From assembly GCA_965216315.1 (NCBI GenBank), contig CBDCFN010000016.1:1824001-1888000 (forward strand): DNA of 64,000 nucleotides, in the 5' to 3' direction. This document shows, one piece after another, positions 120-29,736 of this stretch. This DNA is from a bacterium (GTDB lineage: Bacteria; UBA10199; 2-02-FULL-50-16; JAJFLM01). The notes under the pieces are model-generated. The model worked only from the letters and a program-made list of their open reading frames with translations. It made no database searches and was not told where the DNA came from. Position numbers and translations under genes: made by a program. Position 1 is the stretch's first letter. Each line of letters opens with the position of its first letter.

Positions 120-761
120 CTAGAAAAACTCAGGTTCTGCGACAGGGTCTTTAAAACCTTGATCTGACACAGGAACATTGCCATTCGCGTCTACGACATC
201 AATACGGTGGCCGGATTGCTCTTCCCAGCGCCGCAGGGCCTTTTCTAGCAGAGCATTATCCATAGACCATATTTCATTATGCTCCCCTTCAATCTTTTGC
301 TGGCTAAAAAGATTATAGGAAATGGAAAAACTCTGAAACCCGGACTCATCAGGGCCACCCCAAACGATGAAACTCGTTGGTTCCTGAATTTTGAGACGCA
401 CGGGATTGTCAGGATCGTGCGCGGTCCTTAAAAAACCAACCAGGGCTAAATTAATCCGAAGCGTCCAAAGTGGCTGCTTTAGTTTTTTCATCACCAACAT
501 TAATTCATCGAGAAAGGTCTGTTGATCCATCCCCTTCTTTTCAATGTGTTGGGTGGCATTATAGGTAATGACTTCGAGGCTATCTGGCATGACCAAACCA
601 AAGAAAGCCCGCAGAAAATAGAAGACCTGTTCAAAGAACCAGACGTTGGTTTCCTCGGACGACATATTGGTAAAATCAAGATTGGAGTGAAACCCCCAGG
701 TTCCAATAAGCTGACCTTGATCCGTCGCCTCATCCAATAAATCATCTAAGCCCTTAATCAC
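120..761 (-). CDS. Hypothetical protein (213 aa)
   Basis: Long ORF with natural composition; no motif recognised. Confidence 0.65.
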   Translation of the reverse strand: MIKGLDDLLDEATDQGQLIGTWGFHSNLDFTNMSSEETNVWFFEQVFYFLRAFFGLVMPDSLEVITYNATQHIEKKGMDQQTFLDELMLVMKKLKQPLWTLRINLALVGFLRTAHDPDNPVRLKIQEPTSFIVWGGPDESGFQSFSISYNLFSQQKIEGEHNEIWSMDNALLEKALRRWEEQSGHRIDVVDANGNVPVSDQGFKDPVAEPEFF

Positions 762-2895: not shown

Positions 2896-2962
2896 CTCAC
2901 ACCTCACAGTATTAAGGACAATTTTTAAATAGTGGATAGCTACGCTCTCAATGGTTGTTGTT

Positions 2963-2978
2963 TACAAGATTCATGCCA
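2963..2978 (-). promoter_or_regulatory. Sigma54-like promoter
   Basis: TGGCAT-N5-TTGTA (one mismatch to TTGC) upstream of the lipoprotein gene. Confidence 0.45.
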
Positions 2979-3112
2979 CGCTTAGAAAAAACCCCTAACT
3001 AGCTGATATAGCTAAGAAATAGTACTTTCAGGACTGGAGGTATGAAAGGTAATTACATGAATACAATGCAATAAATATATACTGCATCGCATTCTGATAA
3101 TCTGATTAATAT

Positions 3113-4603
3113 TTAGTATAAGAAGGAACGCACCGAATCACGGATCAAGAGCAGTATCTTGGACGGAAACAGGCCCCAATAGGCTGTCAGCAGCAAACAA
3201 ACAAATATCCCTGTTAAGAGGGAATAACCGCTTTGAAGCATCCTCTTTTCCGAAGCGGGTTTAAAAAAGAGAATTTGGATGATGCTAAGCGCTCCAAATA
3301 AGGAAAGCGCCCAGCCAATCAGGGCCAGTGAACCATAAATGATCAGGCCACCATCAAAGACGACCCGCAAAATAGAAAAAACACCAATAAAACCAGCTGT
3401 CATCGGAACCCCGGCGAGACCCAAGACAAATAAAGCCATCGAACAGGCGAGCCAAGGATGAATCCGCGCAAGCCCACTAAACTCCGTCAGCTCCAACGGC
3501 TCATCACCACGCCGGGCCGCAGCCATGATGACGGCAACCAAACCCATTATAAGTATCATATAAACGAGCACGTAATAGGAAAAAGCCACAAAGGCCTCTT
3601 CTTGGAGGCGTCCACTGCGACCCGCAACGGCGAGCGCCAGCAAAAGAAAACCAACATGCCCAATCGCCGCATAAGCCATCCTCCGCTTAAAGTGACTTTG
3701 CTGCAGTGCCTGCAATGGCCCGATAATGACCGCAGCACTGCCGGCAATACCCAATAAATGAGTCCATCCTAGGATAGTAGGACTCCATCCGGCGATAACA
3801 AGGCGCGACAAAACAGTAACGCCCACTAACTTACTGATGACGGCCATAAACCCGACAGAGACCGTATCTCCACCTTCATAGACATCCGGTTCGCTAAAAT
3901 AAAACGGAACCCACCCCATCTTAATGGCCACACCACCAAGAAACAGCAGTCGTCCCAGCTCCTGAATGTCATCCAATGACTGCGTTCGACCGACAGCAAA
4001 AACTTCAGCCAATTCCGTTTTGCCCAACGCTCCATAAATAAAAACAAGACCGACAAAGAGACAAAGAGACCCCAACCCCGTCGTCAAATAATATTTCGTC
4101 ATCACTTCATGACGATGGCGGGCAAATACTCCATTACCTAACCAGACAACCAAGGGCAAAATCGTTAATTCATAACCTATATAGATCCCAAGCAAATCAT
4201 GGCTATGAATCACCGCAACAGCACCCAACGCACTTAAAAGCGGTAATGAAAAAATTTCGTTTGCCTGGGATCGATCTCTACCATGAGTTTGGCAAAGCAC
4301 TAAAAGAAGCATGACTATCACGATAAGGCTGAAAAAGAGGGAGAAACGATCAATACTGAATATTCCCCATACTGAAGATCCGCCCCGCAGCCACTGCCAC
4401 GCCGTAAAAAACAATACCAATACCGATGCACTCAGGCTGAGATAAAAGCGAAACCGTGCACCCTTGCGGCTGGAAAATGACTCCCACATCGAAAGAAAAA
4501 CTGACGTCACCAGCCACGCACCACAACTTAACCACACGAAGGGAATCGAGATGCTGCGCATGGCCTGCCAATACGGCTCAATTATTTCGAGCGGCAAAAT
4601 CAT
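3113..4603 (-). CDS. nuoN: Divergent NuoN-like subunit (second copy)
   Basis: Multi-TM; KMGWVPFYFSEPDVYEG, KRRMAYAAIGH, LAGVPMTAGF; GGAGG RBS before ATG 4603. Confidence 0.8.
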   Translation of the reverse strand: MILPLEIIEPYWQAMRSISIPFVWLSCGAWLVTSVFLSMWESFSSRKGARFRFYLSLSASVLVLFFTAWQWLRGGSSVWGIFSIDRFSLFFSLIVIVMLLLVLCQTHGRDRSQANEIFSLPLLSALGAVAVIHSHDLLGIYIGYELTILPLVVWLGNGVFARHRHEVMTKYYLTTGLGSLCLFVGLVFIYGALGKTELAEVFAVGRTQSLDDIQELGRLLFLGGVAIKMGWVPFYFSEPDVYEGGDTVSVGFMAVISKLVGVTVLSRLVIAGWSPTILGWTHLLGIAGSAAVIIGPLQALQQSHFKRRMAYAAIGHVGFLLLALAVAGRSGRLQEEAFVAFSYYVLVYMILIMGLVAVIMAAARRGDEPLELTEFSGLARIHPWLACSMALFVLGLAGVPMTAGFIGVFSILRVVFDGGLIIYGSLALIGWALSLFGALSIIQILFFKPASEKRMLQSGYSLLTGIFVCLLLTAYWGLFPSKILLLIRDSVRSFLY

Positions 4604-6050
4604 ACCCTCCTTCAACCAGAATCTCAGGCTTTACTTTTGAGAGCCACAAAGTCGCTGCACGGCGCGTCTTATCCAAGAGAAGATGAGGTTGCAGTCCTGT
4701 CACAACCATCATCATCACAATGATAAGGGCTGCCGCCCAGTAGCGTAAAGAACGCCGCCAATACAGGGTTTGAGTACGCAAATCCTGACAACAAATCGCA
4801 ACAGCGCAAGCAACTATAATAAATCCAATTATGGTGATAATTGCCGCACTAAGATGCCAGGCGACAGCAGCCGACAAGAGCAAAATAATTCCCACAAAGA
4901 GGCCTGTTCCTGGCAAACCAAGAGCACTGGCCATGGCTATTGAAAGAAATGCTTTTCCTAGCGGCTGCACCTCTTTCAGTGGATCAGATGACTCGGTAGG
5001 AACTTGTTGCACATACATTACTAACGAAAAAATTATGACGATCAAGCTATGGCCGGTCAGAATCATGAACACACTCTGCGCAGCATCGACCGTCAAGAGG
5101 GAAACGCCCATCCAAAGCAGCCCCACATGCGCCACACTCAACCATACCAGACGCGCTGGCAATTTACTGGGAGCCAGACATAAGGCCGCTCCCCCTATTA
5201 CGGAGATTAATCCAATAATACTAAACAGAGGAGCATAAGTTTCCACAGCGACTGGGAATAACGGATAGGCAAAGCGGAACACAAAATAAAGACTTGCCTT
5301 GATTACCAGTGCCAACATGAGCAGGTAGGTGGCAGGCGTTGCTCCATGAAGCACGCGCCCAATCCACATCTGAAGTGGCATGGCGCCGGACTTAAGTAAA
5401 AGGCCTAATAAGAGTATCACCCCATATTTTTTTTGAACGTCCGGCGTCGCAACCCTTTCGATGAGGCTTGCCAAATCAGTAACATCACCTGCGGCGCGCG
5501 CTACGACAAATAAACCTAGCCACAGCGCCAAGCTTCCCACCAGGTTAATGGCCAAAAACCAAGCAGCACCTTCCGATTGCCGGCTTTCTCGACGAATAAA
5601 TATAAAGGTTAGTAATGTGGCGATCTCATAGGCTATTAAACAAAGCAACATATCAAGCGCCATAAAATAGAGGGCCCACACCGAGGCCATCAATAAACAC
5701 AGCGCCCCCGTAACACGGCTATCACCCTCTTTTCTCGACAAAAATGGGAGAAAAGGTGTTACGAGAAAGACCAGACCGACAAATAAAATGGAAATACCAT
5801 CCAGCCCGACCCAATAATGTATTCCTAACTCAGGTATCCACGCGGCAAACTCTGAAAATTCAAAGCCTATCGCACCGCGAAATTCCCGAAACAATCCGAG
5901 CCACCCGACAAATACCAGTAAAGATACAAGGAGACCCCAATTCCTAATCCAGGCCTTGCGGTGCTGAGCAAACAAGAAAAAACTACCGGCACCTAAGGCG
6001 GGAACAATGAGCAGGATACTTGAAATATGTCCTAACAAAATATCTTTCAT
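4578..6050 (-). CDS. nuoM: Divergent NuoM-like subunit (second copy)
   Basis: WIPELGIHYWVGLDGIS, LGLPGTG; ATG 6050 overlaps the upstream stop as ATGA. Confidence 0.8.
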   Translation of the reverse strand: MKDILLGHISSILLIVPALGAGSFFLFAQHRKAWIRNWGLLVSLLVFVGWLGLFREFRGAIGFEFSEFAAWIPELGIHYWVGLDGISILFVGLVFLVTPFLPFLSRKEGDSRVTGALCLLMASVWALYFMALDMLLCLIAYEIATLLTFIFIRRESRQSEGAAWFLAINLVGSLALWLGLFVVARAAGDVTDLASLIERVATPDVQKKYGVILLLGLLLKSGAMPLQMWIGRVLHGATPATYLLMLALVIKASLYFVFRFAYPLFPVAVETYAPLFSIIGLISVIGGAALCLAPSKLPARLVWLSVAHVGLLWMGVSLLTVDAAQSVFMILTGHSLIVIIFSLVMYVQQVPTESSDPLKEVQPLGKAFLSIAMASALGLPGTGLFVGIILLLSAAVAWHLSAAIITIIGFIIVACAVAICCQDLRTQTLYWRRSLRYWAAALIIVMMMVVTGLQPHLLLDKTRRAATLWLSKVKPEILVEGGYDFAARNN

Positions 6051-7888
6051 ATAATAATCCAAGCCATAATCATCGCTAGACCAAGAACCATCCAGAAAAG
6101 CGCATGTTGCACGAGGCCGGTCTGCAACTGAAGTAACGCACGTCCACTTAATCGCAGCCCCGATGCAATTCCTTCCGTCAAGAGTCCCCACTGAACCTTC
6201 TCGATGATAAATTTCTCTAGTACCTCTCGAGAAACAAACTGAATCGGCCGGACAATACAACATTCAACCAGCCCTTCCGCTATTAAACCATCGGTAGACC
6301 ATTGCCTCAGTTTCTTAAAGCGGGTTTTTGGATGATCATCCTGTTTGCGCGATATGATAAAAGTGGCTCCTGCCGCAACCATTAGACTCAATAAGGTTGC
6401 AAGCCCTAATACCAAATGAGCGGTAAATCCATAAACCTCTGATCGGATTGGCAAATGATCTTCAAAAACGGGAAACCAGAAACGATGGAGACTGCCAGGA
6501 CCATAAAAAACCTCCGGTATTGCAGGCCATGTCGCGAGAGCAAGTGGCAGACTGAAACCAACTAAAATTATCAGCCAGCGTAAGCGGCCTAACTTGTCAG
6601 AGCCTGACTCAACAGCACCAGCGGATCTCCAGAAAATCTGCACTACAAGACGACTCGCCGCAATTGCCGTCATAAGGCTCGCGCCTGTTAACAGCACCCA
6701 TGTGAAATAGCGCTGTTGGTTAAAAGCGTGCCAAATAATTTCATAACGCGTAAAAAATCCTGGGAAAGGAGCCAGGCCTATTAATGAAACCACCGCAATA
6801 ATCGCTAGTATGCGGACATGGCGAGACAAAGCCACGCACAACAAAGCGATTGCCCCAATAGAAACAGTCCAATGCGATAGCCCTTCAGGCACACCGCCGG
6901 TTCCAAAGGCCGCAATAGCAATGGCGACTTGACTCCAAGCCAACAATGACACGGTCCGATGCGAACCTGTTTGAAAGCACGCAAACAAAGCCGCCATAAA
7001 GGCGCTCACGGCTCCAACAATTTCAAGACCCAGCAAAGCCCAAGAATTCATGAGGGTAAGCGAATGAATGCGAGCCACATAATAGAGCCCAAGCAAGCCA
7101 AATCCAGCGCACAAAACCCAGGTCAGCACGGTCAATGAAGTCGTATCCAGGCGTCTCAACCAAAATGCAAACGGCCAGGCAAGCGTGATCAATAAAGGCG
7201 GAATCAACAGATACCAGAGCAACGACCGGCTAATAGCTCCGGCCTGATCAGCGAGCGATGCAAAACTAAGCACAATTTTTGCGTCTGCTGACGCCTCAAT
7301 TGATAACAAAGGAAGGAGCCCAACCATGGCAATAATCAAGGCGCCACTACACAGCTGTGTCAGCCATAACAACTTGTTATCACGGAAATGCCAACACAGT
7401 AAGAATGCGATTCCTTCCCACCCGAATATAAATATCGGCAGGCTTTCCGCCCACAATGCCGTGAGAAGAAAGAAGAGTCCCGCATTAAGCAGCGATGTAT
7501 CACGTGCCATTCGTTCCGGCTTATCAAGAAGCCAGAGATTCATAAAAATTGTCAGAAATGCGGCTATGACACTAAAAATAAGCGTCATTGGATCAATCCA
7601 GAAAGTGAGATCAAATTCGCCTAGCTCAGTATGAAACCAATCCGTATACGGCCCAATGACCAGGCCATCAGGGGCTCCGTCCGTCATGAATACAATGAGA
7701 CCAATCAGGAGAATAGAGATCAAAGGCGCCCCTATAGCCGAGCTAACGACAACAGGGATCGCACGTCCTTTGGCAGTGCCATCCGAAGCAAGCGCAATAA
7801 CCGCATTGATAGCAGCGCTTATAAGAGGTGCTAGCAAAACGATCAAGGTGAGATCGTTAATGGAGAAGCCAAAAAGAAGTGTCGACAT
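6047..7888 (-). CDS. nuoL: Divergent NuoL-like subunit (second copy)
   Basis: FWIDPMT, FGWEGI, PFPGFFTRYEI, C-terminal LQTGLVQH. Confidence 0.8.
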   Translation of the reverse strand: MSTLLFGFSINDLTLIVLLAPLISAAINAVIALASDGTAKGRAIPVVVSSAIGAPLISILLIGLIVFMTDGAPDGLVIGPYTDWFHTELGEFDLTFWIDPMTLIFSVIAAFLTIFMNLWLLDKPERMARDTSLLNAGLFFLLTALWAESLPIFIFGWEGIAFLLCWHFRDNKLLWLTQLCSGALIIAMVGLLPLLSIEASADAKIVLSFASLADQAGAISRSLLWYLLIPPLLITLAWPFAFWLRRLDTTSLTVLTWVLCAGFGLLGLYYVARIHSLTLMNSWALLGLEIVGAVSAFMAALFACFQTGSHRTVSLLAWSQVAIAIAAFGTGGVPEGLSHWTVSIGAIALLCVALSRHVRILAIIAVVSLIGLAPFPGFFTRYEIIWHAFNQQRYFTWVLLTGASLMTAIAASRLVVQIFWRSAGAVESGSDKLGRLRWLIILVGFSLPLALATWPAIPEVFYGPGSLHRFWFPVFEDHLPIRSEVYGFTAHLVLGLATLLSLMVAAGATFIISRKQDDHPKTRFKKLRQWSTDGLIAEGLVECCIVRPIQFVSREVLEKFIIEKVQWGLLTEGIASGLRLSGRALLQLQTGLVQHALFWMVLGLAMIMAWIII

Positions 7889-7896
7889 AGAGTATT

Positions 7897-8202
7897 TTAG
7901 TTCTTCAAAAAGTTCTGTTTGCTTACATCCACAGAACTTTGGTCCTTAGCAATACGAACAACAAGGCCCAAACCGATAAGGAACTGAGCCGTCATCGCAA
8001 CAAGCAAAACGATCAATCCGAGAGACCCAAGAGCATCTCCATGAAAGCGCCAACCAGCCACCCACCCTAAAGCCGTTCCCTGAAACATTAATAGTATCGC
8101 AAATACGAGGGTTAACAGGTTGCGACGTCCCAGCAGAACCATGAGACCAATACCAAAAAGTATCCAACTCAAAAGAAGACAAGCACCAAAACTCAGGCTC
8201 AT
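7897..8202 (-). CDS. nuoK: Divergent NuoK-like subunit (second copy)
   Basis: 101 aa, 3 TM, GIGL...RRN motif, position in the J-K-L-M-N order. Confidence 0.75.
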   Translation of the reverse strand: MSLSFGACLLLSWILFGIGLMVLLGRRNLLTLVFAILLMFQGTALGWVAGWRFHGDALGSLGLIVLLVAMTAQFLIGLGLVVRIAKDQSSVDVSKQNFLKN

Positions 8203-8687
8203 GTATCCTCCCTACTGCCGCGAAGTAGAAATCGCATGGAAATAAAAACCGTAAATAATAAAAGTCCTGCAAGACTCAGCAAAGTGATTCCGTTGGAACC
8301 GAGATTTAGAAAAAAAAGCTTGGGAGATACGCCGAACGCCGTTTTATCTGGCAGCAGGCTACTCATATGCAACAAGACAAGCCCCCCGAACAGCACGGAC
8401 AATAACAAACCTGTCAGTTGCGCAAAAGAAAGGCTCCGTTTGGTATAAAGTCTCTCAGGCCCGACCGCGCGAATAAATTGCACCGCTCCTGCCAAGAGAA
8501 GCATCATTATAATGAATTGAATCATGGCGAGTATGGGTGCCTGGAGGGCAACCAAAAGGATAATCATACCCAGCACATTGAGGAAAACTGCCAGTACGAT
8601 CTTGAGGGGGCTTCTCAAGACAAGTATGGCTACAGATGAACTTATGGCTGTAACAGCCCCAAGATTAAAGAGAATCCCCTCCCCCAT
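8199..8687 (-). CDS. nuoJ: Divergent NuoJ-like subunit (second copy)
   Basis: Five hydrophobic segments, LQAPILAMIQ resembling NuoJ LxAxFxAxxQ, gene order. Confidence 0.7.
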   Translation of the reverse strand: MGEGILFNLGAVTAISSSVAILVLRSPLKIVLAVFLNVLGMIILLVALQAPILAMIQFIIMMLLLAGAVQFIRAVGPERLYTKRSLSFAQLTGLLLSVLFGGLVLLHMSSLLPDKTAFGVSPKLFFLNLGSNGITLLSLAGLLLFTVFISMRFLLRGSREDT

Positions 8688-8749
8688 AGTTCCTTATAAA
8701 GGTGAAGCGCCTATGGATCAAGCTAAAGCTTGCTACGAAGGATCACGAC

Positions 8750-10240
8750 TCAGCGCAGCATTTGCGTCGAGGCCTGGACCCACTCGGCGACTGGCTGCCA
8801 GAAAACACCCAAGTAAAGGGTCAGGATGGCCAAGGCCCCCAACAGAGTCGAATAGGAAAGGCCGGGTTGAGCCAACAAATCCTCATTTTCGGCCTTATCG
8901 AAGAACATGACCTTGACGACATACATATAGTAATAGAGGGCGATAACGCTGTTAAGCGCGCCTATCACCGCGAGGACATAAAGTTCGCTCGAAATAACCG
9001 CCTTAAAAAGATATAACTTGCCGATAAAGCCGGCAGTCGGTGGCAGCCCTGTTAGGCTGAACATGAAAAGGGTCATCGCAACGGCAACGGCCGCCCCTCT
9101 GGGCCCACGAGAGCTGAGCCCCGCATAATCAGCAATCTTCTCTACACCGAATTGATTGGATACAATGATAACGACCAAGAACGCGCCGATATTCATGACA
9201 AGATAGACAACCATATACAGCATAACGGACTCGACGGCCGCCTGATTGAGCGCCGCAAGTCCCATCAACATGTAGCCGGCATGCGCAACGCTAGAATAAG
9301 CCAACAGGCGCTTCATATTTTGTTGGCGCAAGGCAATGAGGTTACCTACGGTCATTGTAGCTATAGCTAGATAAGATAAAACGTCACTGATACCAATCGT
9401 CTTGATATCTATAAACTCGGTCCCATCCGCAAAAAAGAGGCCTATTAAGAGATAACGAATCAATACGGCAAAACCCGCCGCCTTAGGACCAACAGACAGG
9501 AAGGCCGTAAAAGGCGTTGGCGCTCCTTCGTAAACATCAGGGCTCCACATGTGAAAAGGAAACGCAGCTACTTTAAAGCCAAAACCGGCGAGCGACATAA
9601 TCAACGCTAAAAACAGTACGGCTCGATCCGTCGCGTTGAATTGCAAAAATTCAGCAATCTCATTTAATTGCAGCGTCCCCGTCAGGCCAAAAAACAGTGA
9701 AAACCCGTAGATCATGACACCGCTCGCAACACCCCCATAAATCACGTACTTGAGCGCCGCTTCCGTCGAGCGCCGCGCTGACCCAGAATACCCGGTTAAC
9801 AGGTAAGAACTAATACTGACCATTTCAAGCGCCAGATAAATCATCAAAAGATTTGACGCCATCGCTAAAAAATTCATCCCCATCGTCAAAACAAGGATCA
9901 AAATGTAATAACTGGGTGAATCGCTCTGAGCTAAATCTTTGGATCGTTGTGACAAGATAACCGTCAACACCGCCGCCACGCCGAATATATATTTAAAGAA
10001 TAAGCCCATCCCATCAAATGAAGCCATCCCCATAAATATCATTGCCGATTCTTTTGAATGCAAAGTCGCGGCCACAGCCAGGGAGATAATGATTCCAATT
10101 AAGGTCAAGGACCCGTAGATACTCGTCGACGGCTGTTTTTCAGCGCCTTTAAAGAACGTCAGAAAAAACAGTAAAACGATAGTCCCCGCGAGTACGATCT
10201 CCGGAAGGATAAACTGGATGCTTTCTAAATTCCCTAACAT
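8750..10240 (-). CDS. nuoN: NADH-quinone oxidoreductase subunit N
   Basis: EAALKY, FKVAAFPFHMWSPDVYEGAPTP, KRLLAYSSVAHAGY, GFIGK. Confidence 0.95.
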   Translation of the reverse strand: MLGNLESIQFILPEIVLAGTIVLLFFLTFFKGAEKQPSTSIYGSLTLIGIIISLAVAATLHSKESAMIFMGMASFDGMGLFFKYIFGVAAVLTVILSQRSKDLAQSDSPSYYILILVLTMGMNFLAMASNLLMIYLALEMVSISSYLLTGYSGSARRSTEAALKYVIYGGVASGVMIYGFSLFFGLTGTLQLNEIAEFLQFNATDRAVLFLALIMSLAGFGFKVAAFPFHMWSPDVYEGAPTPFTAFLSVGPKAAGFAVLIRYLLIGLFFADGTEFIDIKTIGISDVLSYLAIATMTVGNLIALRQQNMKRLLAYSSVAHAGYMLMGLAALNQAAVESVMLYMVVYLVMNIGAFLVVIIVSNQFGVEKIADYAGLSSRGPRGAAVAVAMTLFMFSLTGLPPTAGFIGKLYLFKAVISSELYVLAVIGALNSVIALYYYMYVVKVMFFDKAENEDLLAQPGLSYSTLLGALAILTLYLGVFWQPVAEWVQASTQMLR

Positions 10241-10251
10241 TAACTTCTCGC

Positions 10252-11757
10252 CTACATTCCCAATGCTACGAGATACGGTTTCATAGCATCGTTAAGCCCG
10301 ACCAAAGACGTATTCATCAGATCCAACACGACCTTGGGATAGACACCCACAATAATGACAATAATCGCTAAGGGAGCGATCGACAGTATCTCGCGACCAT
10401 TCACATCGGGAAGACTCTTATATTTTTCATTAGGCGTCCCCAAGAAGACGCGCTGAAAGCACCAGAGCATATATCCCGCAGTCAAAACAACGCCACTGAC
10501 CGAAATAATCGTGTAGACACGCCAGGTCTTAAATCCACCAATGAAGCACAAGGCCTCGCTAATAAACCCTGATAACCCCGGCAACCCAAGCGCGGCAAAA
10601 AACGCAAGCCCGGTCAGAACGGCATAACGCGGCATAATCGACGCCAATCCCCCGAAACCATCTAAATTCCGATGATGCGCACGATCGTAAATAATCCCGA
10701 CTATCAAGAATAGTTGGGCCGTGATCGTGCCATGATTAAACATTTGCAGAACAGCGCCATTCATTCCCTCGGCCGTAAAAGAAGCCATGCCCAACATACA
10801 AAAACCCATGTGACTAATCGAAGAGTAGGCAATGAGTTTTTTGAAATCTTTTTGGGCCATCGCGCACAAGGCTCCATAGACGATATTGATCACGCCCAGG
10901 ACGACAATCAACTGAGCAAAAGTCGCCGTCGCGTCCGGCAAGAGCGGATAACAAATCCGCATGATTCCATAGATTCCCATCTTGAGCAAAATCCCGGCCA
11001 GGATAACCGAAATCGCAGTCGGCGCTTGCACGTGAGCATCTGGCAACCAGGTATGAAAAGGAAATGCCGGAATCTTAATTGCAAAACCGATGAACAGCGC
11101 CAGCCAAGCAACATTACGGAAGGTCGAATTAGTCAGAATCCCCGTATGCGTCTCCTGGTTGGCCAGCGTGACGAGATTAAATACGTTACCATCACTGTAG
11201 AGATAGAAGGCCAACATGACCAAAAGCATCATCACGCTGCCAAACAGCGTATAAAGAAAAAACTTAATCGCTGCATATTCGCGACGCTCTCCACCCCAGA
11301 TACCGATTAGAAAATACATCGGCAATAACATGACTTCCCAAAAGACGAAGAAAAGGAAAAAATCGAGCGCACAAAACACACCCATCATTCCTGAGCAAAG
11401 CATTAGGAAAAGCGAAAAATAGCCTTTAACGGACTTCTTAATATTCCATGACGCCAGGACACAGACAAAGGAGATCAGCGGCGTCAATAAAATCATCGGG
11501 ATCGAGACCCCATCGGCCCCCATAAAATATTCAATGTTAAAAGCCGGAATCCAGGGATAAGGCCCTTCGATGAACTGCAAGGATGTCGTGTTCGTATCAA
11601 ATGCCGCATAAAGCATAATAGCGGCAATAAGCGTAGGAATTGTCGTCAGCAATGCCGTCCAACGAATCACTTCTTCTTTTTCCTTGGGGATAAGCAAAAT
11701 AATTAATGCCCCGACCAAGGGAAAGAATGTTAAAAATGAAAGATAGGGGAAATCCAT
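10252..11757 (-). CDS. nuoM: NADH-quinone oxidoreductase subunit M
   Basis: FWEVMLLPMY, KIPAFPFHTWLPDAHVQAPT, LLKMG, GFISE. Confidence 0.95.
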   Translation of the reverse strand: MDFPYLSFLTFFPLVGALIILLIPKEKEEVIRWTALLTTIPTLIAAIMLYAAFDTNTTSLQFIEGPYPWIPAFNIEYFMGADGVSIPMILLTPLISFVCVLASWNIKKSVKGYFSLFLMLCSGMMGVFCALDFFLFFVFWEVMLLPMYFLIGIWGGERREYAAIKFFLYTLFGSVMMLLVMLAFYLYSDGNVFNLVTLANQETHTGILTNSTFRNVAWLALFIGFAIKIPAFPFHTWLPDAHVQAPTAISVILAGILLKMGIYGIMRICYPLLPDATATFAQLIVVLGVINIVYGALCAMAQKDFKKLIAYSSISHMGFCMLGMASFTAEGMNGAVLQMFNHGTITAQLFLIVGIIYDRAHHRNLDGFGGLASIMPRYAVLTGLAFFAALGLPGLSGFISEALCFIGGFKTWRVYTIISVSGVVLTAGYMLWCFQRVFLGTPNEKYKSLPDVNGREILSIAPLAIIVIIVGVYPKVVLDLMNTSLVGLNDAMKPYLVALGM

Positions 11758-11770
11758 AGAACACTCCTAG

Positions 11771-13822
11771 TTACAGCGCTAGTCGCCAAAACATAAATAC
11801 CAAAACGCCTACCACCATTACGTAGACGTAATTTTGAATCTTGCCCGTCTGGATTAGACGTAATTCCTTACCACTAATCTGAATTGAATCGGCAATGCGA
11901 TTCACAATGCCGTCGACAAAAATCCTGTCAAACCAACCACTGATCCAAGAAATTATTTTCGTGAGAAAAGCCGAAAAGTTAACTATGCCATCTACGACTC
12001 GATTATCAAAAGCGGCTAGAAAATTCATAAGTATCAACACCGATTTGACGAAAGTCGCCTGATAGATCTCATCGACGTAAAATTTATTATAGGCCAGCTG
12101 ATATAAGCGTGAGAAACGGCGAGCCAGCTTTTCGGGAATATCCTGGCGCTTGGTGTAGAATAAAAAGCCGACATAACAAGCGATACCGGCAACGGCCAAG
12201 GAAAGGCCCATTAGGATATATTCCGCAATTGGAATTTCATGGTGCCCACCTTTGGGCACAGCCATCGCCGGCGCCAACCAGTCGTGCAAAATGTGTGAAT
12301 GATCAAGCCCAACGAGATGCCCTAAGGCTGCCGGGACACCGAGAAAACCACCAAGAATAGAAAGACCCGCCAAGACGATTAAGGGCACGGTCATTGAACG
12401 TGGCGACTCATGAATATGCGATTGAACCTCTGCATCGGACCGATTCTTGCCTAAAAAGGTCATCCCCAGGAGGCGGAACATATAGAAGGCTGTCATCGCG
12501 GCAGCGACCAGCCCGACGGCCCAGAGGATCTTATTATGCTCAAAGGCATGCCACAGAATCTCATCCTTACTAAAGAACCCTGCAAACGGAAAAATACCGG
12601 CAATGGCCAGAGTTCCAATCAGAAAAGTGGAATAGGTAATGGGCATCTTCTTTTTAAGTCCACCCATCACGCGCATATCCTGATGATTACTCATCGCATG
12701 AATGACAGAACCGGAACCGAGGAAGAGTAATGCCTTAAAGAATGCATGAGTAATAAGATGAAAAATGCCTGCAACGAATGCCGCCACGCCCATGGCCCCC
12801 ATCATGTAACCAAGTTGACTGACGGTCGAATACGCCAGGACCTTTTTAATATCATTCTGAACCAGACCGATCGAAGCCGCAAATATCGCGGTCGCAAATC
12901 CAACGGTGGCAACAACCGCCATCGTCTCAGGCGCCAGGATGAATAAACTCGACATACGTCCGATCATGTATACCCCGGCCGTGACCATAGTCGCCGCGTG
13001 AATCAACGCCGAAACCGGGGTCGGACCCGCCATGGCATCCGGCAACCATACATATAAAGGAATCTGTGCCGACTTTCCTGTCGCACCGACAAAAAATAAG
13101 AGTGTGGCTAGACCGACCGCACTCACACCAAACAAAGTCACACCTTCGAGCAAGGGGGCATACTGCCTGATCTCAGTAAACTTCACAGTCGGGTGCCCTA
13201 AACTATGCAGGGTCCAGAAGAGAATAAACAGGCCAACCAGAAATGCAAAGTCGCCAATACGGTTGACGATAAAGGCCTTCATCCCGGCCTTGGCTTTTTC
13301 AATGTCCTTATGCCAAAAGCCAATAAGTAAATACGAGCAGAGCCCCACGCCTTCCCAACCGACAAACATCAACAGGACATTCTCTCCCATCACTAAGAGC
13401 AACATCGCAAAGCTAAAAAGATTTAAATAACAGAAATAACGCGAATAGCTCGGGTCGTGATGCATGTATCCCACGGAATAGACGTGAATGAGAAAACCGA
13501 CACCCGTGATAACCATCATCAAGGAGACCGAAAGAGGATCAAGTAAAAAGGCAATATCCGCCTGCACATTGCCGATATAAATCCATTGCCACAGGTCTAC
13601 CGTGATCGAACGCGACGTCGGCGGTAACCCCATAAGATGTATTAAGACGCCCAGCGAAAGCAAAAAGGAGAGTGCGATGCTGCCGCACGCAACCGTATGA
13701 ATGAAGCTCTTGACCTGCCGTGCGCCAGAAAAGCTATAGAGCCCGTTAATAAGGGCACCAAGCAACGGGAATAAAGGAATCAATCCCGCTAAATTAATAC
13801 AAAGTTGAGTAAAGCCTTCCAC
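11771..13822 (-). CDS. nuoL: NADH-quinone oxidoreductase subunit L with a lengthened lateral helix
   Basis: GWEGVG, NRIGD, GKSAQIPLYVWLPDAMAGPTPVSALIHAATMV, HAFFKA, FFSKDEI. Confidence 0.95.
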   Translation of the reverse strand: MEGFTQLCINLAGLIPLFPLLGALINGLYSFSGARQVKSFIHTVACGSIALSFLLSLGVLIHLMGLPPTSRSITVDLWQWIYIGNVQADIAFLLDPLSVSLMMVITGVGFLIHVYSVGYMHHDPSYSRYFCYLNLFSFAMLLLVMGENVLLMFVGWEGVGLCSYLLIGFWHKDIEKAKAGMKAFIVNRIGDFAFLVGLFILFWTLHSLGHPTVKFTEIRQYAPLLEGVTLFGVSAVGLATLLFFVGATGKSAQIPLYVWLPDAMAGPTPVSALIHAATMVTAGVYMIGRMSSLFILAPETMAVVATVGFATAIFAASIGLVQNDIKKVLAYSTVSQLGYMMGAMGVAAFVAGIFHLITHAFFKALLFLGSGSVIHAMSNHQDMRVMGGLKKKMPITYSTFLIGTLAIAGIFPFAGFFSKDEILWHAFEHNKILWAVGLVAAAMTAFYMFRLLGMTFLGKNRSDAEVQSHIHESPRSMTVPLIVLAGLSILGGFLGVPAALGHLVGLDHSHILHDWLAPAMAVPKGGHHEIPIAEYILMGLSLAVAGIACYVGFLFYTKRQDIPEKLARRFSRLYQLAYNKFYVDEIYQATFVKSVLILMNFLAAFDNRVVDGIVNFSAFLTKIISWISGWFDRIFVDGIVNRIADSIQISGKELRLIQTGKIQNYVYVMVVGVLVFMFWRLAL

Positions 13823-13826
13823 TCCC

Positions 13827-14135
13827 CTACCCCTTCAATAAAGTCGCAGCTTCCACATCAATATTGTGGAAGGACCTGTAGATTGCGACGACGATTGCCA
13901 GAGCAACGGCCGCCTCTGCAGCTGCCAAAACAATAATAAATAAAGTAAAGACCGTCCCGGCAACCACCTGTCCGCCATAATGAGCAAAGGCAACAAAGTT
14001 GATCGCCGCAGCATTCAAAATAAGTTCAACTCCCATCAAGATGGCAATCGCATTGCGGCGGGTCATGACCGTATAAAGTCCTAAACAGAGGATGAGGGCT
14101 GACAAAGCAACAAAATACCCCAAACCTAAAGTCAT
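13827..14135 (-). CDS. nuoK: NADH-quinone oxidoreductase subunit K
   Basis: RRNAIAILMGVELILNA, AAAEAAVALA. Confidence 0.95.
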   Translation of the reverse strand: MTLGLGYFVALSALILCLGLYTVMTRRNAIAILMGVELILNAAAINFVAFAHYGGQVVAGTVFTLFIIVLAAAEAAVALAIVVAIYRSFHNIDVEAATLLKG

Positions 14136-14635
14136 CGTACTGCCCTCCTGACCAACACTACGGCCCCCACCAACGCGCCCAACAGGAGCACTGAGATCAC
14201 TTCAAAAGGAAGCAAGTACTCCTTGAGCAATGCATTCCCGATCGGTGCCACAACTGACTGACTCGTCAGCGCTTCCGTAGCTAGCCAACGAGCACCGGGC
14301 AACACCGTCAACAAACCAATAAAAAGCAAAAAGATAATCGGCACAGCCATTTTCCAATGGGCCGGCTTATTCGTCACTGAACTATCCGCAATATCCGCCG
14401 TCAACATCACTGCAAACAAAATCAGGATTAAAATGCCGCCCACGTATACAAGCAACTGCGTCACAGCGACAAAATCCGCGGCCAGTAAACCGTAGAGCAC
14501 TGCTGTACCCAATAAGGTCCCCATTAATGCAAAGGCGGAGTAAATGAGATTATGTGAGAAGGCCACGACACAAGTAGACGCCACCATAAATAGGGCAACT
14601 AAAGTAAATACAACTAATTCAATCGATGGCATCAT
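14132..14635 (-). CDS. nuoJ: NADH-quinone oxidoreductase subunit J
   Basis: ADFVAVTQLLVYVGGI, YLLPFEVISVLLL; start placed just after the nuoI stop. Confidence 0.93.
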   Translation of the reverse strand: MMPSIELVVFTLVALFMVASTCVVAFSHNLIYSAFALMGTLLGTAVLYGLLAADFVAVTQLLVYVGGILILILFAVMLTADIADSSVTNKPAHWKMAVPIIFLLFIGLLTVLPGARWLATEALTSQSVVAPIGNALLKEYLLPFEVISVLLLGALVGAVVLVRRAVR

Positions 14636-14636
14636 G

Positions 14637-15116
14637 TTATTCGGTCTTTTCCGCTTTAGGTGCCACATAGGGCACGATTTTTTCCCCTTCCGGGACAAAA
14701 TTAAATACGAGCTCGCTCATGCTAAAGCTGGCTTTCTCAAATTCTTTGGTAAAATGAATCGCCCCGGTTGGGCAGGGTTCCGTGCAGAGCCCGCAATACA
14801 TACATTTACCGAGATCAATATCAAATTGAGTCAGAAAGCGTTCTTTAGTTTCTTTATCTTTATCCGTCTTGATCAGGATGCAGTCGATTGGACAATCCAT
14901 CATGCAGGCCAAACAGGCGGTACAAATTTCCATATCCACCTTAAGCAAACCGCGAAACCGCTCAGGCAAAGCTTCGGCAATGGGCTTCGGCGTCTTGTCC
15001 GGATACTGAACGGTTACGGGACGCCGAAACAAATGGGAAAAAGTAATACTCATCCCTTCAAAAATCGAGGTCGCCGCATCTGAAATATTTTTAAAATAGT
15101 TTGTTACTGCCGTCAT
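14637..15116 (-). CDS. nuoI: NADH-quinone oxidoreductase subunit I
   Basis: Two CxxCxxCxxxCP 4Fe-4S motifs, TVQYP, RFRG. Confidence 0.95.
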   Translation of the reverse strand: MTAVTNYFKNISDAATSIFEGMSITFSHLFRRPVTVQYPDKTPKPIAEALPERFRGLLKVDMEICTACLACMMDCPIDCILIKTDKDKETKERFLTQFDIDLGKCMYCGLCTEPCPTGAIHFTKEFEKASFSMSELVFNFVPEGEKIVPYVAPKAEKTE

Positions 15117-15134
15117 AGCAGCTCATCTCCATCA

Positions 15135-16340
15135 TCAAACAAACGGGTTTAAGTGTATTTCCGCCTTGGAAAAACGCAGCTGATAAATAACCCGATATAG
15201 AAAATAAACAATCGTCGCTACCGCCCCAAAAAAGAGCACGTAACTGGCAAACAAAGACCCTGCGGGCAGCAACAACATCCACACGGCGTTGCCAAGAACA
15301 CAGAAAAACCCGAAGGGGACAAAATACTTCCAGCAAAGACCCATCAATTGATCCACGCGCACCCGCGGCAAAGTCCAACGTATCCAGATAACCACGAAGA
15401 CCACCGCTAGCGCCTTAACCATAAACGTCGCTAGCTGCATCAGATTCAAAAGAACCACGCTCTTTTCCGTGGCCCAACTCGCCACGTCCGGCGGCAATTG
15501 CCAGCCACCTAGAAAAAGCGCCGTACTCACTGCCGCGATCAAGTAAAGATTTGCCCATTCTTCCAGAAAAAAAAGCGCAAAACGCATTCCCGAATATTCC
15601 GTATTGTAACCAGACACCAACTCACTCTCGGCCTCGGGTAAGTCAAAAGGTGTCCGATTCCCTTCTGCGAGCGCGGCAATAAAAACGATAAAGAAAGTAA
15701 TCACCGTAAACGGACTCTGAAACAAGTACCACTGCCAGGGATAAGCTCCCTGCCCGCCAATAATTCCTTGGAAAGAAAGAGTGCCGGACAACATTACAAT
15801 GACGAGAATCCCCAATGCCAATGGAATTTCGTAACTGATCACCTGGGCCGCAGAACGCATGGCTCCAAGTAGCGACCATTTGTTATTTGAAGACCATCCA
15901 CTCATGATCACACCGACCGTCACAATACTCGTCACCGCAATCATGTAAAAAATACCGACATTAAGATCGGCAACAATGACTTTGCTACTGAAAGGGATTG
16001 TAACAAAGGCCGCAAACATTCCGATCAATACAAGATAAGGCCCCAGACGAAACAGTAATGGATCCGCGGCACGCGGGATGATATCTTCTTTGAGTAGAGC
16101 TTTAAGTCCATCGGCAATCCACTGGAGTATGCCTTGGGGCCCCACCCGGTTCGGCCCAACGCGACTCATCATCCGCGCCGCGACACGCCTTTCGATAAAA
16201 CTCGTAATGCCTGCAAATGGCGCCACAAAAAGCATCAGCATGGCCAAGGCCGCCGCAAACTGCAGTCCGAGATGAATCGCCCACGACACATCCTTCAACG
16301 CAGGTGCCTTTTCGACAATGATGTTGACCAGTGCTTCCAT
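15135..16340 (-). CDS. nuoH: NADH-quinone oxidoreductase subunit H
   Basis: RVGPNRVGP, NRTPFDLPEAESELVSGYNTEYSG, PRVRVDQ. Confidence 0.95.
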   Translation of the reverse strand: MEALVNIIVEKAPALKDVSWAIHLGLQFAAALAMLMLFVAPFAGITSFIERRVAARMMSRVGPNRVGPQGILQWIADGLKALLKEDIIPRAADPLLFRLGPYLVLIGMFAAFVTIPFSSKVIVADLNVGIFYMIAVTSIVTVGVIMSGWSSNNKWSLLGAMRSAAQVISYEIPLALGILVIVMLSGTLSFQGIIGGQGAYPWQWYLFQSPFTVITFFIVFIAALAEGNRTPFDLPEAESELVSGYNTEYSGMRFALFFLEEWANLYLIAAVSTALFLGGWQLPPDVASWATEKSVVLLNLMQLATFMVKALAVVFVVIWIRWTLPRVRVDQLMGLCWKYFVPFGFFCVLGNAVWMLLLPAGSLFASYVLFFGAVATIVYFLYRVIYQLRFSKAEIHLNPFV

Positions 16341-16342
16341 AT

Positions 16343-17488
16343 TTACCTGTCTATCTCCGGAGCGACGACATCCAGACTTGCAATAAAAGCAATCAAATCA
16401 GCCACCATCATGCCGCGACTGATCTTTTCACATATGGCCATCGCCGTATAAGAGCTCGTTCTAAACCGGAGCCGATAGGGTTTGTCACTCCCATCACTGA
16501 CTAGATAGACGCCCAAATCACCGCGAGTACTTTCCGTCCTGACATAGACTTCACCCTTGGGGGGCCGTAATTTGCGGGGGACCTTTGACAAAAAATCCCC
16601 CGCCGGCATCAGCTCAAAACACTGTCGAAGTATCTTGACTGATTCGCCCATCTCACGAATGCGAACATCATAACGATCGAAACAATCGCCAACCGTTCCC
16701 GCATCTCCGCGACCCACCTGAACATCAAAAGCAAGTTCCGGGTACACCGAGTAAGGAATATCCTTACGGAGATCCCATTTGACCCCCGAACCCCTTAAGT
16801 TAGGACCTACTAGGTTGTAAGCAATCGCGTCTTCCTTGGAAATGACACCAACATTGCCTAAGCGTTTGCGAAAAATCTTATTACCGGTCAAAAACCGATC
16901 GTATTCATCGAGAATCAGCTCGAAACGATCGAGAGCTTTCAGAAGCCGCTCTGCAAAGCCATCCGGCAGATCAAAAATAACGCCACCGATACGCGCATAG
17001 TTGTACGTAATCCGTTGCCCACACAACTCCTCGATAAAATTATTAAAAATCTCGCGTTCTCTGAGAGCGTGAATAAAAGGGGTGTAAGCGCCCACATCCA
17101 TTCCGACGCTACCAACAGACAAAAGATGCGAAACGATGCGGTTTAATTCCGCCGCGATCACTCTCAAGAACTCACCACGCCGTGGCACTTCAATGCTGGC
17201 AAGCTTTTCGACCGCCATCGCATACGCAATATTGGCATTCATGGCGGCCAGATAATCCACCCGGTCCGTCCAGGGCATGAATCCATTATAGGTCGCTTGC
17301 TCGGCAATCTTTTCAATGGAACGATGGAGATACCCTATTTCCGGTACTGCTTTGCTCATGACCTCGCCATCGGTATGGACAACAAAACGTATCACCCCGT
17401 GGGTACTCGGATGATGGGGCCCCATGTTCAGGACCATGTCTTGTTCGCGATCCGCTGGCTCAGCGGTATTTGGCATTATTGTTGTCAT
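16343..17488 (-). CDS. nuoD: NADH-quinone oxidoreductase subunit D
   Basis: [27 protein letters not shown]-terminal EIDR; no NiFe CxxC motifs. Confidence 0.95.
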
Positions 17489-17493
17489 ATGGT

Positions 17494-17643
17494 TTATTGG
17501 AGTAATGATGTCCGTGTTGTGCTGATTCCGTGGTAGTCTTCCGCGGCTTTAATAGGGGCTTGCGTCGCCCCCTCCAGAAGCAAAGCTCCTGGAGCCTCCC
17601 CCTCTCGCTCGCGTTGCTCGCTATACGACATTCTGTAATCCAT
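17494..17643 (-). CDS. Putative 49-aa micro-ORF: in-frame repeat fused to a recoded NuoC tail
   Basis: Hand translation [49 protein letters not shown]; fills the nuoC-nuoD gap with 5-nt spacers on each side. Confidence 0.4.
17553..17623. repeat. 71-bp structured repeat, family A, copy 1
   Basis: TAGGGGCTTGCGTCGCCCCCTCCAGAAGCAAAGCTCCTGGAGCCTCCCCCTCTCGCTCGCGTTGCTCGCTA; four copies in the window. Confidence 0.9.
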
Positions 17644-17648
17644 GCCGA

Positions 17649-18176
17649 TCATTGCAGCAACGATGTCCTTGTAGTACTGATTCCGTGATAATCTTCCGCT
17701 TCCTTATAATCTTTTCTTAAGGGGTGGCCGGGCCAATCATCAGGCATCATGATGCGCCGCATATCGCTATGACCATCAAAAACAATTCCGAATAAATCGT
17801 AGATTTCACGTTCAAACCAGTTGGCTATCGGCCAAACGGCTTCAACTGTCGGGACTTTTGGAGTGCCCTCATGAGTCAAAACAACTTTAAAGGCAATACT
17901 ATGCCCGTGTTTATAAGAAAAAAGATTGTAGACAACTTCAAACGACTCTTTGCGATCAATCGCCGTCTGATCACTTAAGCAATCAAAGTCAAAGCTATCC
18001 ATCACTTTCATCAGTTCGCATACATCTTTGATTCGCGCCGCAGGAATAACGATGTATGTATCACCCGCATGCCCCGGCTCATCCTTGGCGGGGGCAGGAA
18101 TCTGCCCTTCGCAGAGTTGAAACTCATCGTCTGGAAATTTCTCTTTGATTGCTTTTAAGATTTCTTGAGTCATCAT
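17649..18176 (-). CDS. nuoC: NADH-quinone oxidoreductase subunit C
   Basis: WFEREIYDLFGIVFDGH, RRIMMPDDWPGHPLRKD; start placed after the nuoB stop. Confidence 0.95.
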   Translation of the reverse strand: MMTQEILKAIKEKFPDDEFQLCEGQIPAPAKDEPGHAGDTYIVIPAARIKDVCELMKVMDSFDFDCLSDQTAIDRKESFEVVYNLFSYKHGHSIAFKVVLTHEGTPKVPTVEAVWPIANWFEREIYDLFGIVFDGHSDMRRIMMPDDWPGHPLRKDYKEAEDYHGISTTRTSLLQ

Positions 18177-18193
18177 ACTCTGCAAATTCTTCG

Positions 18194-18688
18194 CTAAGCT
18201 GCTTGAGTCCGCCGCACCAGAAATTTTTCCTTGCGCATTTTTTCTTGTATCTTGAGTAAGCCTTCTGTCAGGGCCTCGGGACGTGGGGGGCAACCCGGCA
18301 CGTAGACATCAACCGGAATAATCTTGTCGACACCTTTCACAACTGAGTAGGCTGGTTGAAACAAGCCACCACAGTTAGAGCAACTGCCCATCGAAATCAC
18401 GTATTTTGGTTCAGCCATCTGGTCATATAAAAGCTTGGTTCGAAGCGCCATCTTGTAGGTGAGCGTTCCAGCAACAATCAATAGATCCGATTGTCGCGGC
18501 GTCGCCCTTGGCACGGAACCAAAACGATCCAGATCCGCTCGAGGGCCACCCGTCTGCATCAGTTCAATGGCGCAACAAGCAAGTCCAAAGAGGAGATACC
18601 ACAACGAAGAGGCCCGGCCCCAATTGATCACATCATCGAGTTTGGTTGTGATCAAAGTATCCGGCAGTTGATTCTTAAGCGTAAACAT
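18194..18688 (-). CDS. nuoB: NADH-quinone oxidoreductase subunit B
   Basis: [30 protein letters not shown]. Confidence 0.96.
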
Positions 18689-18703
18689 CTCGCACTCCCC
18701 AAC

Positions 18704-19147
18704 TTAGGCAGCCTTTGCCGCAGTGCCTTCGTCTTTAGAATCGTTCGTAGGCGCGGTCAGCTCCGACGATAGTTGCTTGATCCACTCCAAGTCTCCATGG
18801 ACCCAGACATAAATCAAACCCAGTAAAAGTATCCCTACAAAGACAGCAATCTCGCCTAACGCCAACCAGCCCTGACCATTCGCCATCCATTCTTTAAAAA
18901 CGACCCCAACCGGCAACATCAAAGCGATTTCAACGTCGAAAATGATGAACAGTAACGCGATCAGATAAAAGCGCATGTTGAAGTTGATCCAGGCGGGACC
19001 AACGGGGACCTCCCCACACTCGTAAGTCGTTAATTTTTCAGCAGTTGGGACGGAGGGACGCACCAGTCGGCCCAGACTGAGTGAGACCATCACAAAGCCG
19101 AAGCCAACAAGGAAAAAGACTAATATATTCGACAAGTTGAGAGGCAT
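18704..19147 (-). CDS. nuoA: NADH-quinone oxidoreductase subunit A
   Basis: KLTTYECG, RFYLIALLFIIFDVE; AAGGAG RBS before ATG 19147. Confidence 0.95.
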   Translation of the reverse strand: MPLNLSNILVFFLVGFGFVMVSLSLGRLVRPSVPTAEKLTTYECGEVPVGPAWINFNMRFYLIALLFIIFDVEIALMLPVGVVFKEWMANGQGWLALGEIAVFVGILLLGLIYVWVHGDLEWIKQLSSELTAPTNDSKDEGTAAKAA

Positions 19148-19211
19148 TTGACTCCTTGCATCAAACCGCGTCGTATACTTATCGAGGCCCCTGGGCATCG
19201 TCAAGGGCTTT

Positions 19212-29484: not shown

Positions 29485-29510
29485 GCACCTACTCCTCCAC
29501 CCCAATAGAG

Positions 29511-29526
29511 AGCAAAGACCGTGCCA
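29511..29526 (-). promoter_or_regulatory. Sigma54 promoter with upstream IHF site (29554..29566)
   Basis: TGGCAC-GGTCT-TTGCT; AATCAA-ATTG-TTA fits WATCAANNNNTTR. Confidence 0.75.
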
Positions 29527-29736
29527 GAGTGGCTTAGCGGGCGATATAAGCCGTAACAATTTGATTTTATATGATTTTTATCATATTGAAGGTGCGCGAT
29601 TTCCATGTGATCACCCTAAAATCACGGGTATAGACCCCCCATTTTTTGCGAAAATTTCCCAATTTGACATCAATTTTGTGGTTTTAACCCCTCAAATCGC
29701 GGCTTTTTTGAATTTTTTGCGGCTCTTATCTAATGG

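Follow-up and report, generated by a model that had tools for sequence, protein, structure and literature searches.

A second nuoJKLMN set behind an intact complex I operon as the probable redox-orphaned, non-pumping remainder of a tandem operon

The subunits J, K, L, M and N form the antiporter-derived module of complex I. In the cyanobacterial NDH-1MS complex, NdhD3, NdhF3 and CupA are alternative distal subunits on one complex I core, the function of which is changed; the exchange there is confined to the M- and L-type subunits, which remain redox-coupled, and is accompanied by an additional Cup protein. Incomplete sets have been reported as well. In one study, nuoJKLMN was present without nuoA-I in all 95 Gilliamella genomes and was interpreted as a remnant (PMC11325843). 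The second nuo set of Streptomyces (nuo2, SCO4599-4608) lacks NuoCDEFG and L and keeps A-, B-, H- and I-type genes (PMC9239103), and SAR116 genomes have kept nuoL beside an acquired nqr operon (PMC8547437). Here we describe five genes, J2, K2, L2, M2 and N2, that follow a complex I operon (operon Y) in a stretch of 64,000 nucleotides (the window) from the 2.96-Mb bacterial genome G000. Judging from the sequences, we think it rather likely that the five genes encode a redox-orphaned, non-pumping J2K2N2M2L2 membrane subcomplex that is co-expressed with operon Y, is not driven by quinone, and has lost the coupling path and the L channel.

The orphan genes of Gilliamella and other Orbaceae (PMC11325843) are likewise the five distal membrane genes alone, kept throughout a clade after the catalytic subunits had been lost. 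They are, however, the sole nuo genes of genomes that have been reduced, whereas the window set lies behind an intact complex I operon, with another elsewhere in the genome; this comparison is one of gene content. Streptomyces nuo2 is likewise a second, incomplete nuo set near a canonical operon, but the window set consists of J-N only. Compared with NDH-1MS, J and K are duplicated as well, a Cup-like gene is absent, and coupling residues have been lost. The Mrp (Mnh/Pha) antiporters likewise combine NuoL/M/N-like and NuoK-like subunits and have no redox module, but Mrp requires MrpB, E, F and G, together with an MrpA that has an extra C-terminal domain, and none of these is found at the window set. 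Ehr and group 4 [NiFe]-hydrogenase complexes encode NuoB/D-like and NuoH-like subunits, none of which accompanies the window set. In the literature library searched for partial nuo and nuoJKLMN sets, no description of the module of this lineage was found.

The genes that make up the locus are as follows:

8750..19225, minus strand: operon Y, nuoABCDHIJKLMN, 11 subunits without nuoEFG, recognised from open reading frames (ORFs) and from Pfam and NCBIfam matches well over the cut-offs
8750-10240, minus strand: nuoN of operon Y
8688..8749, minus strand: spacer of 62 nt that separates nuoN from J2 and contains an AAGGA Shine-Dalgarno-like site
8199..8687, minus strand: J2, NuoJ-like, 162 amino acids (aa)
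7897..8202, minus strand: K2, NuoK-like, 101 aa
6047..7888, minus strand: L2, NuoL fold, 613 aa
4578..6050, minus strand: M2, NuoM-like, 490 aa
3113..4603, minus strand: N2, NuoN-like, 496 aa
2908..3112, minus strand: AT-rich spacer 3' of N2, by eye the probable end of the transcription unit

All five ORFs lie on the minus strand and are free of stops and frameshifts. A scan for terminator-like sites found none in the 62-nt spacer between nuoN and J2, and listed none in the spacer at 2908..3112. J2 and K2 overlap by ATGA, preceded by GGGAGGA; K2 and L2 are separated by 8 nt, and L2 and M2 again overlap by ATGA. The N2 ATG at 4603 lies 23 nt ahead of the M2 stop and is preceded by GAAGGAGGG. 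This start (496 aa) is the likeliest for N2 and agrees with gene call P0108. For M2, a start at 6050 (490 aa), which agrees with gene call P0110, is likelier than the longest-ORF start at 6263. The five proteins are only 21-27% identical to the adjacent canonical subunits.

We then compared the proteins with family models, using Pfam gathering scores and NCBIfam curated cut-offs. K2, M2 and N2 passed the Pfam gathering score and L2 and J2 failed it; none of the five reached the curated NCBIfam cut-offs for NuoJ-N, and the best NCBIfam matches of K2, L2, M2 and N2 were NuoK, L, M and N, respectively. K2 scored 50.6 bits with PF00420 and 50.6 bits with the NCBIfam NuoK model (cut-off 57), M2 94.8 bits with PF00361 and 153 with TIGR01972 (cut-off 263.8), and N2 138.9 bits with PF00361 and 237 with TIGR01770 (cut-off 332.6). 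L2 reached 16.3 bits with PF00361 (cut-off 21.5), and its match to the NCBIfam NuoL model lay mainly over residues 359-612. J2 had no Pfam or NCBIfam match at E 1e-3 (PF00499, E 0.4) and is 21% identical to the adjacent NuoJ.

Residue states were followed in the three genomes that carry the set, G000, G001 and G002. They represent three genera and form one family within a small phylum of 93 species genomes in one class, the other 90 genomes lying outside the family. In K2, GVEL has become AILL and AAAE has become MTAQ, so that Leu and Gln replace both NuoK glutamates in all three genomes. J2 has a 4-residue deletion that removes the VY(V/A)G segment of the third transmembrane helix (TM3), and the segment is gone from all three genomes; in G002, J2 is also truncated, with its C-terminal part gone, and fused to K2. 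The K2 substitutions, fixed in all three genomes, and the J2 deletion go back to the ancestor of the family. L2 keeps GWEG but has lost the GKSAQ (TM7 Lys), HAATM and HAFFK motifs, and FFTR in place of FFSK puts Arg where the TM12 Lys should be; the three genomes alike lack the majority of the L2 channel residues. In M2, the TM5 Glu, TM7 Lys, TM8 Lys and TM11 His are present in each of the three, and the TM12 Glu in none. N2 of G000 still has the TM5 Glu, TM7 Lys and TM8 Lys but not the TM12 Lys. Across lineages, the TM7 Lys of N2 is kept in all four sequences available, which include the partial relative P0109. The TM5 Glu is lost in G002, the TM8 Lys in G001, and the TM12 Lys in G000 and P0109. 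Since each lineage has lost a different key residue, the pattern points to proton transfer in N2 having escaped selection. Taken as a whole, the set no longer carries the charged axis of complex I (the K glutamate pair and, in L, M and N, the TM5 Glu, TM7 Lys, TM8 Lys or His and TM12 Lys or Glu), and J2-N2 probably no longer pump protons.

These alignments bear on an initial annotation of the locus that had been made by eye. Its description of a complete, intact and tightly spaced J-K-L-M-N set 62 nt behind nuoN was borne out, as were the residues that it listed as lost and kept in K2, L2 and M2. For J2, the loss of the VYVGG motif stands, but as a deletion of the segment and not as the substitution proposed. 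The listed residues of N2 hold for G000; the loss of the TM12 Lys is restricted to G000 and its nearest relative P0109, and the two other genera retain this residue. Nor do the lineage-specific losses in N2 support a reading of the residue pattern as a single fixed design. That annotation gave its positions in E. coli numbering.

An AlphaFold2 (AF2) model of L2 (predicted local distance difference test score, pLDDT, 86.8) adopts a NuoL fold with a lateral helix at residues 535-588 and a terminal TM at 593-612. When this model was searched against the PDB with Foldseek, the best match was E. coli NuoL (7z84_L, TM score 0.73), and the top 50 matches listed were all NuoL/ND5/NdhF-type chains of complex I or NDH-1. 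L2 is thus modelled with the lateral helix of NuoL, unlike Mrp. The best solved sequence matches of M2 were ND4/NuoM (E 6e-20), with MrpA trailing at 7e-11. Clustering with an arm of the Mrp, Ehr or hydrogenase type, which would have counted against the initial annotation, was not seen. Two features of L2 are new: a conserved loop motif, (V)FE(D/N)xLPIR(S/T)(E/Q)x(Y/F), ahead of TM15, and a conserved TM Glu at residue 289.

To place the set, we annotated the nuo loci in 14 genomes, which resolved into three operon types, labelled Y, X and Z. Operon X comprises A, B, C, D, E, F, G, H, J, K, L, M and N, with nuoEFG. Operon Z has a fused CD, an 870-aa G, and H and I; in G000, it lies at approximately 302-316 kb of contig C16. 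In all nine non-family genomes examined, an X-type nuoA lies directly behind the nuoN of Y. X continues on the same contig after this nuoA in four of them (G003, G010, G027 and G076), with an insert of 2.4-5.2 kb between nuoA and nuoB in G010 and G076, and the rest of X is located elsewhere in the other five. The end of the slot is marked by a further gene:

120..761, minus strand: d3, a conserved 213-aa protein without a Pfam match, used as a synteny marker

A d3 homologue directly follows X-type nuoN in G017, G024, G031 and G006 (58-72% identity), and in G001 it directly follows N2 (82% identity to the window d3). The d3 synteny and the tandem of Y nuoN and X nuoA together place the five genes in the J-N slot of X. 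Similarity pointed in the same direction. We took the median phmmer score of each window protein against X-, Y- and Z-type subunits, and X scored above Y and Z for all five: 6.7, -3.0 and 5.0 bits (X, Y and Z) for J2; 41.5, 30.8 and 32.4 for K2; 91.5, 35.0 and 22.1 for L2; 91.7, 76.1 and 63.1 for M2; and 188, 114 and 107 for N2. The best BLAST matches of J2 outside the family were also X-type NuoJ. The X nuoJ-N genes of sister lineages such as G003, G010, G027 and G076 thus occupy the same slot between Y and d3, in the same order and with the highest similarity for all five. They differ from the window set in that X operons keep their own nuoA-H with nuoEFG and all the canonical Glu, Lys and His residues, neither of which the window set has, and in that the window set evolves far faster. 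X-type nuoA-H are absent from G000, so that J-N of one operon has been kept and the remainder of that operon has not. Mainly on synteny and similarity scores, then, the five genes are taken to be the J-N remainder of the tandem operon X.

If the neighbouring canonical nuoJKLMN had recently been duplicated in tandem and the copy had then diverged, this would account for the identical gene order and for the position directly downstream, and the initial annotation had indeed taken the five genes for paralogues of their neighbours. Both the d3 synteny and the higher similarity to X are at odds with this. In an N tree built with a careful method, the set formed a single clade (support 100/100) outside the Y clade (100/99), and its internal order, (G002,(G001,(G000,P0109))), mirrored the branching of the family's Y genes. 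Forcing N2 together with the family's own Y nuoN cost 105 units of log-likelihood (approximately unbiased, AU, test, p 1.4e-6). This rejects a duplication of nuoN within the family, and with it a recent duplication of the neighbours, to which we attach a practically negligible probability.

Several features of operon X were noted in passing. No nuoI was present between X nuoH and nuoJ in G003, G027 and G076, where H and J abut or overlap; in G010 and G031, an unannotated gap of 0.9-1.25 kb separates the two genes. X-type NuoH is long (415-441 aa). The nuoA-like gene behind Y nuoN was present in all nine non-family genomes even where X lies elsewhere, and may belong to the Y transcription unit; the family of the window has lost it. 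The d3 protein is acidic, is 56-83% identical across the phylum, and is usually encoded right after X-type nuoN. An Atlas search gave unnamed clusters only and no Pfam match was found; the AF2 model had a pLDDT of 58.2, too low for a structure search. The protein could be a complex I accessory factor or a mere neighbour.

We then asked how widely the set occurs. Orthologues of L2 were found in three of the 93 genomes of the phylum, namely in all three of the family and in none of the other 90. Synteny of the set with the nuoN of Y is kept in all three: G001 has the same gene order, N-J2-K2-L2-M2-N2, and G002 has the fused J2-K2 ORF and L2 on one contig and M2 and N2 on another. A search with L2 among 1.84 billion protein representatives recovered seven further clear relatives (E 3e-88 to 5e-51), all of them full-length cluster representatives of 616-648 aa, and one G002-like sequence (P0013) besides. 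Word-index protein searches returned only L2 itself and four weak NuoL matches for L2, the partial relative P0109 for N2, and canonical-type matches only (approximately 26% identity) for M2. A scan of metagenome contigs with the L2 family motif gave 55 pattern matches, no relative among them, and a scan of genome contigs gave only two relatives, both known already.

Divergence within the family was then compared between the set and operon Y. Between G000 and G001, identity is 81% for canonical NuoM and 66% for canonical NuoN; for J2, K2, L2, M2 and N2 it is 46%, 45%, 33%, 28% and 41%, respectively. Synonymous divergence (dS) being saturated between the genera, we report only the proportions of nonsynonymous and synonymous differences (pN and pS), with no dN/dS value. 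pS was saturated in all genes (0.72-0.83), those of the set included (0.72-0.80). pN was 0.39-0.50 in the set and 0.12-0.22 in nuoM and nuoN of Y, and remained below pS; codon second positions differed less than third positions. With pS saturated, ORFs of this length that have stayed open in three genera and in seven further lineages are incompatible with neutrality, and the earlier proposal that intactness reflects selection is thereby strengthened.

Four DNA runs from one study, and no RNA runs, are listed for the window DNA, and contigs from the four runs showed no polymorphism from which dN/dS at close range could be computed. Run X3 also yielded contigs of low depth, derived from another strain or species related to this one, that differed from the window at 15 listed positions in L2, K2 and J2 (7793-7850 and 8158-8212), nine of which fell on third codon positions by hand count. 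This hints, though weakly, at purifying selection between close relatives.

The channel core of X-type NuoL is itself the most conserved part of that protein (0.62-0.90), and in most of the corresponding region of L2 (residues 101-275), conservation relative to X-type NuoL had fallen to 0.30-0.36. Values of 0.93-1.28, level with X or above it, were retained at the N-terminus, in the beta-hairpin region, at the TM14-15 loop motif, and over the last TM together with the adjoining end of the lateral helix. In M2, the beta-hairpin region was likewise retained and the core was the least conserved of the set (0.25, versus 0.58 in X); N2 was the best-conserved member. The lateral helix and beta-hairpins of complex I are the straps that join the antiporter-like subunits. 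As far as these conservation profiles go, constraint in the set has moved to the clamp elements of the arm, and the proteins appear to have been kept since they still assemble and not since they pump.

The same data bear on the possibility that the genes are a functionless relic heading for loss, with ORFs held open by inertia or by polar effects on downstream genes. Nonsynonymous change 3-6 times faster than in Y, residue losses in N2 that differ between lineages, and the truncation and fusion of J2 in G002 would all be expected of a relic, and the orphan nuoJKLMN of the Orbaceae has been read as a remnant of genome reduction (PMC11325843). A relic would be hard to reconcile, however, with ORFs that are open in all three genomes at saturated synonymous sites, with seven further full-length L2 clusters, with new family-specific conserved motifs in L2, or with clamp elements that are as conserved as in X. 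The genes downstream of the set differ among the three genomes, so that a polarity constraint is not general. We give this explanation a slight chance.

Retention of the TM5 Glu, TM7 Lys, TM8 Lys and TM11 His in M2 of all three genomes, together with the antiporter ancestry of the JKLMN module, leads to another proposal, a stand-alone Mrp-like secondary transporter that would carry out cation/proton antiport or leak ions through M2 and perhaps N2. Its expected partners are lacking: genes resembling MrpB, E, F or G are missing next to J2-N2, and the flanking ORFs have no Mrp family matches. G000 has a complete Mrp/Mbh-type cluster elsewhere (C16, 1925353-1932733), approximately 37 kb beyond the end of the window, with MnhE, MrpF, MnhG, MbhD, MbhE, MnhB, a NuoK-like subunit and three antiporter-like subunits. 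The loss of both K2 glutamates and of the L2 channel residues, and the poor conservation of the M2 core, also argue against such a transporter, which we consider quite improbable. Na+/Ca2+ exchanger family genes (PF01699) were seen downstream of the set in G001 (L009, 3387-4358) and directly after N2 in G002 (L049, 526-1494).

We next looked for redox partners. G000 has two NuoD, two NuoH and two NuoB genes, which are those of Y and Z, and no spare NuoB, NuoD or NuoH was found in the genome. No NuoB/D-like (hydrogenase-derived) or NuoH-like genes are present between nuoN and d3. With all NuoD, H and B genes accounted for by Y and Z, the set is left without a redox partner of its own. Among the 93 genomes, Z was found only in the family; the Z-type NuoM ortholog of G001 is 68% identical, that of G002 is partial, and other genomes give at most 48%. 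Z may have been acquired horizontally and have replaced X.

It is nevertheless conceivable, in keeping with the alternative arm suggested in the initial annotation, that J2-N2 takes the place of the canonical J-N beside the NuoA/H/quinone module of Y or Z, yielding a non-pumping or low-stoichiometry enzyme from the same transcript. The co-orientation with Y nuoN at a distance of 62 nt, the coupled junctions, the lack of a terminator-like site and the synteny kept in all three genomes would fit such a hybrid, and a hybrid machinery has been proposed for Streptomyces nuo and nuo2 (PMC9239103). Yet the original partners of J2, the X-type NuoH and NuoA, are gone, and J2 is the least recognisable of the subunits, with part of TM3 lost and, in G002, the C-terminal part as well. 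Y and Z, moreover, each have a complete membrane arm. We regard a hybrid arm as distinctly unlikely.

A non-pumping membrane subcomplex left over from X would instead have arisen as follows. In the ancestral state, X would have stood in tandem right behind Y, as is normal for the phylum. In the one family of three genomes, nuoA-H of X would have been deleted, and the third complete operon of the 14-subunit type, Z, elsewhere in the genome, may have assumed the role of X. The five leftover genes would have remained co-transcribed with Y. A module without its own NuoH, NuoA and quinone module should not be drivable by quinone reduction, and the loss of the K2 glutamate pair, the J2 TM3 segment and the Lys/His chain of L2 is consistent with an absent quinone drive. 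M2 would have retained its Glu-Lys-Lys-His series while N2 eroded lineage by lineage, with selection still preserving open reading frames and membrane topology and acting most strongly on the parts that hold the arm together. The five proteins would still assemble as a complex-I-like membrane subcomplex, which would not pump protons in a redox-dependent manner and may have a structural, accessory or other non-pumping role. Relative to known orphan arms, what would be new is the tandem position behind an intact complex I, the derivation from a second operon, the family-specific motifs, and a third operon that may replace X.

Several points weigh against this interpretation. That the five proteins assemble is something we infer, and some ion movement through M2 is conceivable, given the Glu-Lys-Lys-His series in all three genomes. 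The truncation and fusion of J2 in G002 and the lineage-wise losses in N2 would also fit slow decay. Saturation of dS precludes an estimate of dN/dS, and misalignment at such divergence may account for part of the gap between pN and pS. The AU tests did not reject trees in which the N2 set is the sister group of all Y (p 0.43) or of Z (p 0.20), and the L tree was built with a quick method only and has long branches. The origin from X therefore rests mainly on synteny and similarity scores.

A wider possibility is that charge-stripped orphan JKLMN arms are a recurrent, selected class of membrane complexes, which would act as a scaffold on complex I, dimerise with it, or be swapped in as an arm that turns Y into a non-pumping quinone reductase. 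If this were so, its new functional sites would be the FE(D/N)xLPIR(S/T)(E/Q) motif of the periplasmic loop, which is conserved, and the membrane Glu that L2 has gained. We consider such a class possible, though unlikely.

As the remainder of X, the locus would amount to a natural deletion experiment on complex I, in which the redox half was removed and the pumping half, with two intact enzymes alongside, has had a long time to evolve. Selection kept the anchor formed by the lateral helix, the straps formed by the beta-hairpins, and the Glu-Lys-Lys-His series of the M-type subunit; the K glutamates, the J TM3 segment and the L channel were dropped. This split would separate the parts of the arm that are needed for building it from those needed only for redox coupling. 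Should the five genes have a new function, the antiporter module of complex I would have been put to a novel use; should they be functionless, the locus would date and order the steps in the decay of a multisubunit membrane machine.

The remaining genes of operon Y in the window are:

18704-19225, minus strand: nuoA
18194-18688, minus strand: nuoB
17649-18293, minus strand: nuoC
16343-17488, minus strand: nuoD
15135-16340, minus strand: nuoH
14637-15116, minus strand: nuoI
14132-14698, minus strand: nuoJ
13827-14135, minus strand: nuoK
11771-13822, minus strand: nuoL
10252-11757, minus strand: nuoM

Between N2 and d3, two ORFs (2062-2907 and 1329-2009, minus strand) are present in G000 only. 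No family matches were found for them, nor any homologues among the loci fetched. Their N-termini resemble signal peptides or those of lipoproteins, and they contain low-complexity linkers rich in Asn or Pro. An ORF of 1512 aa lies at 25021-29559 on the minus strand.

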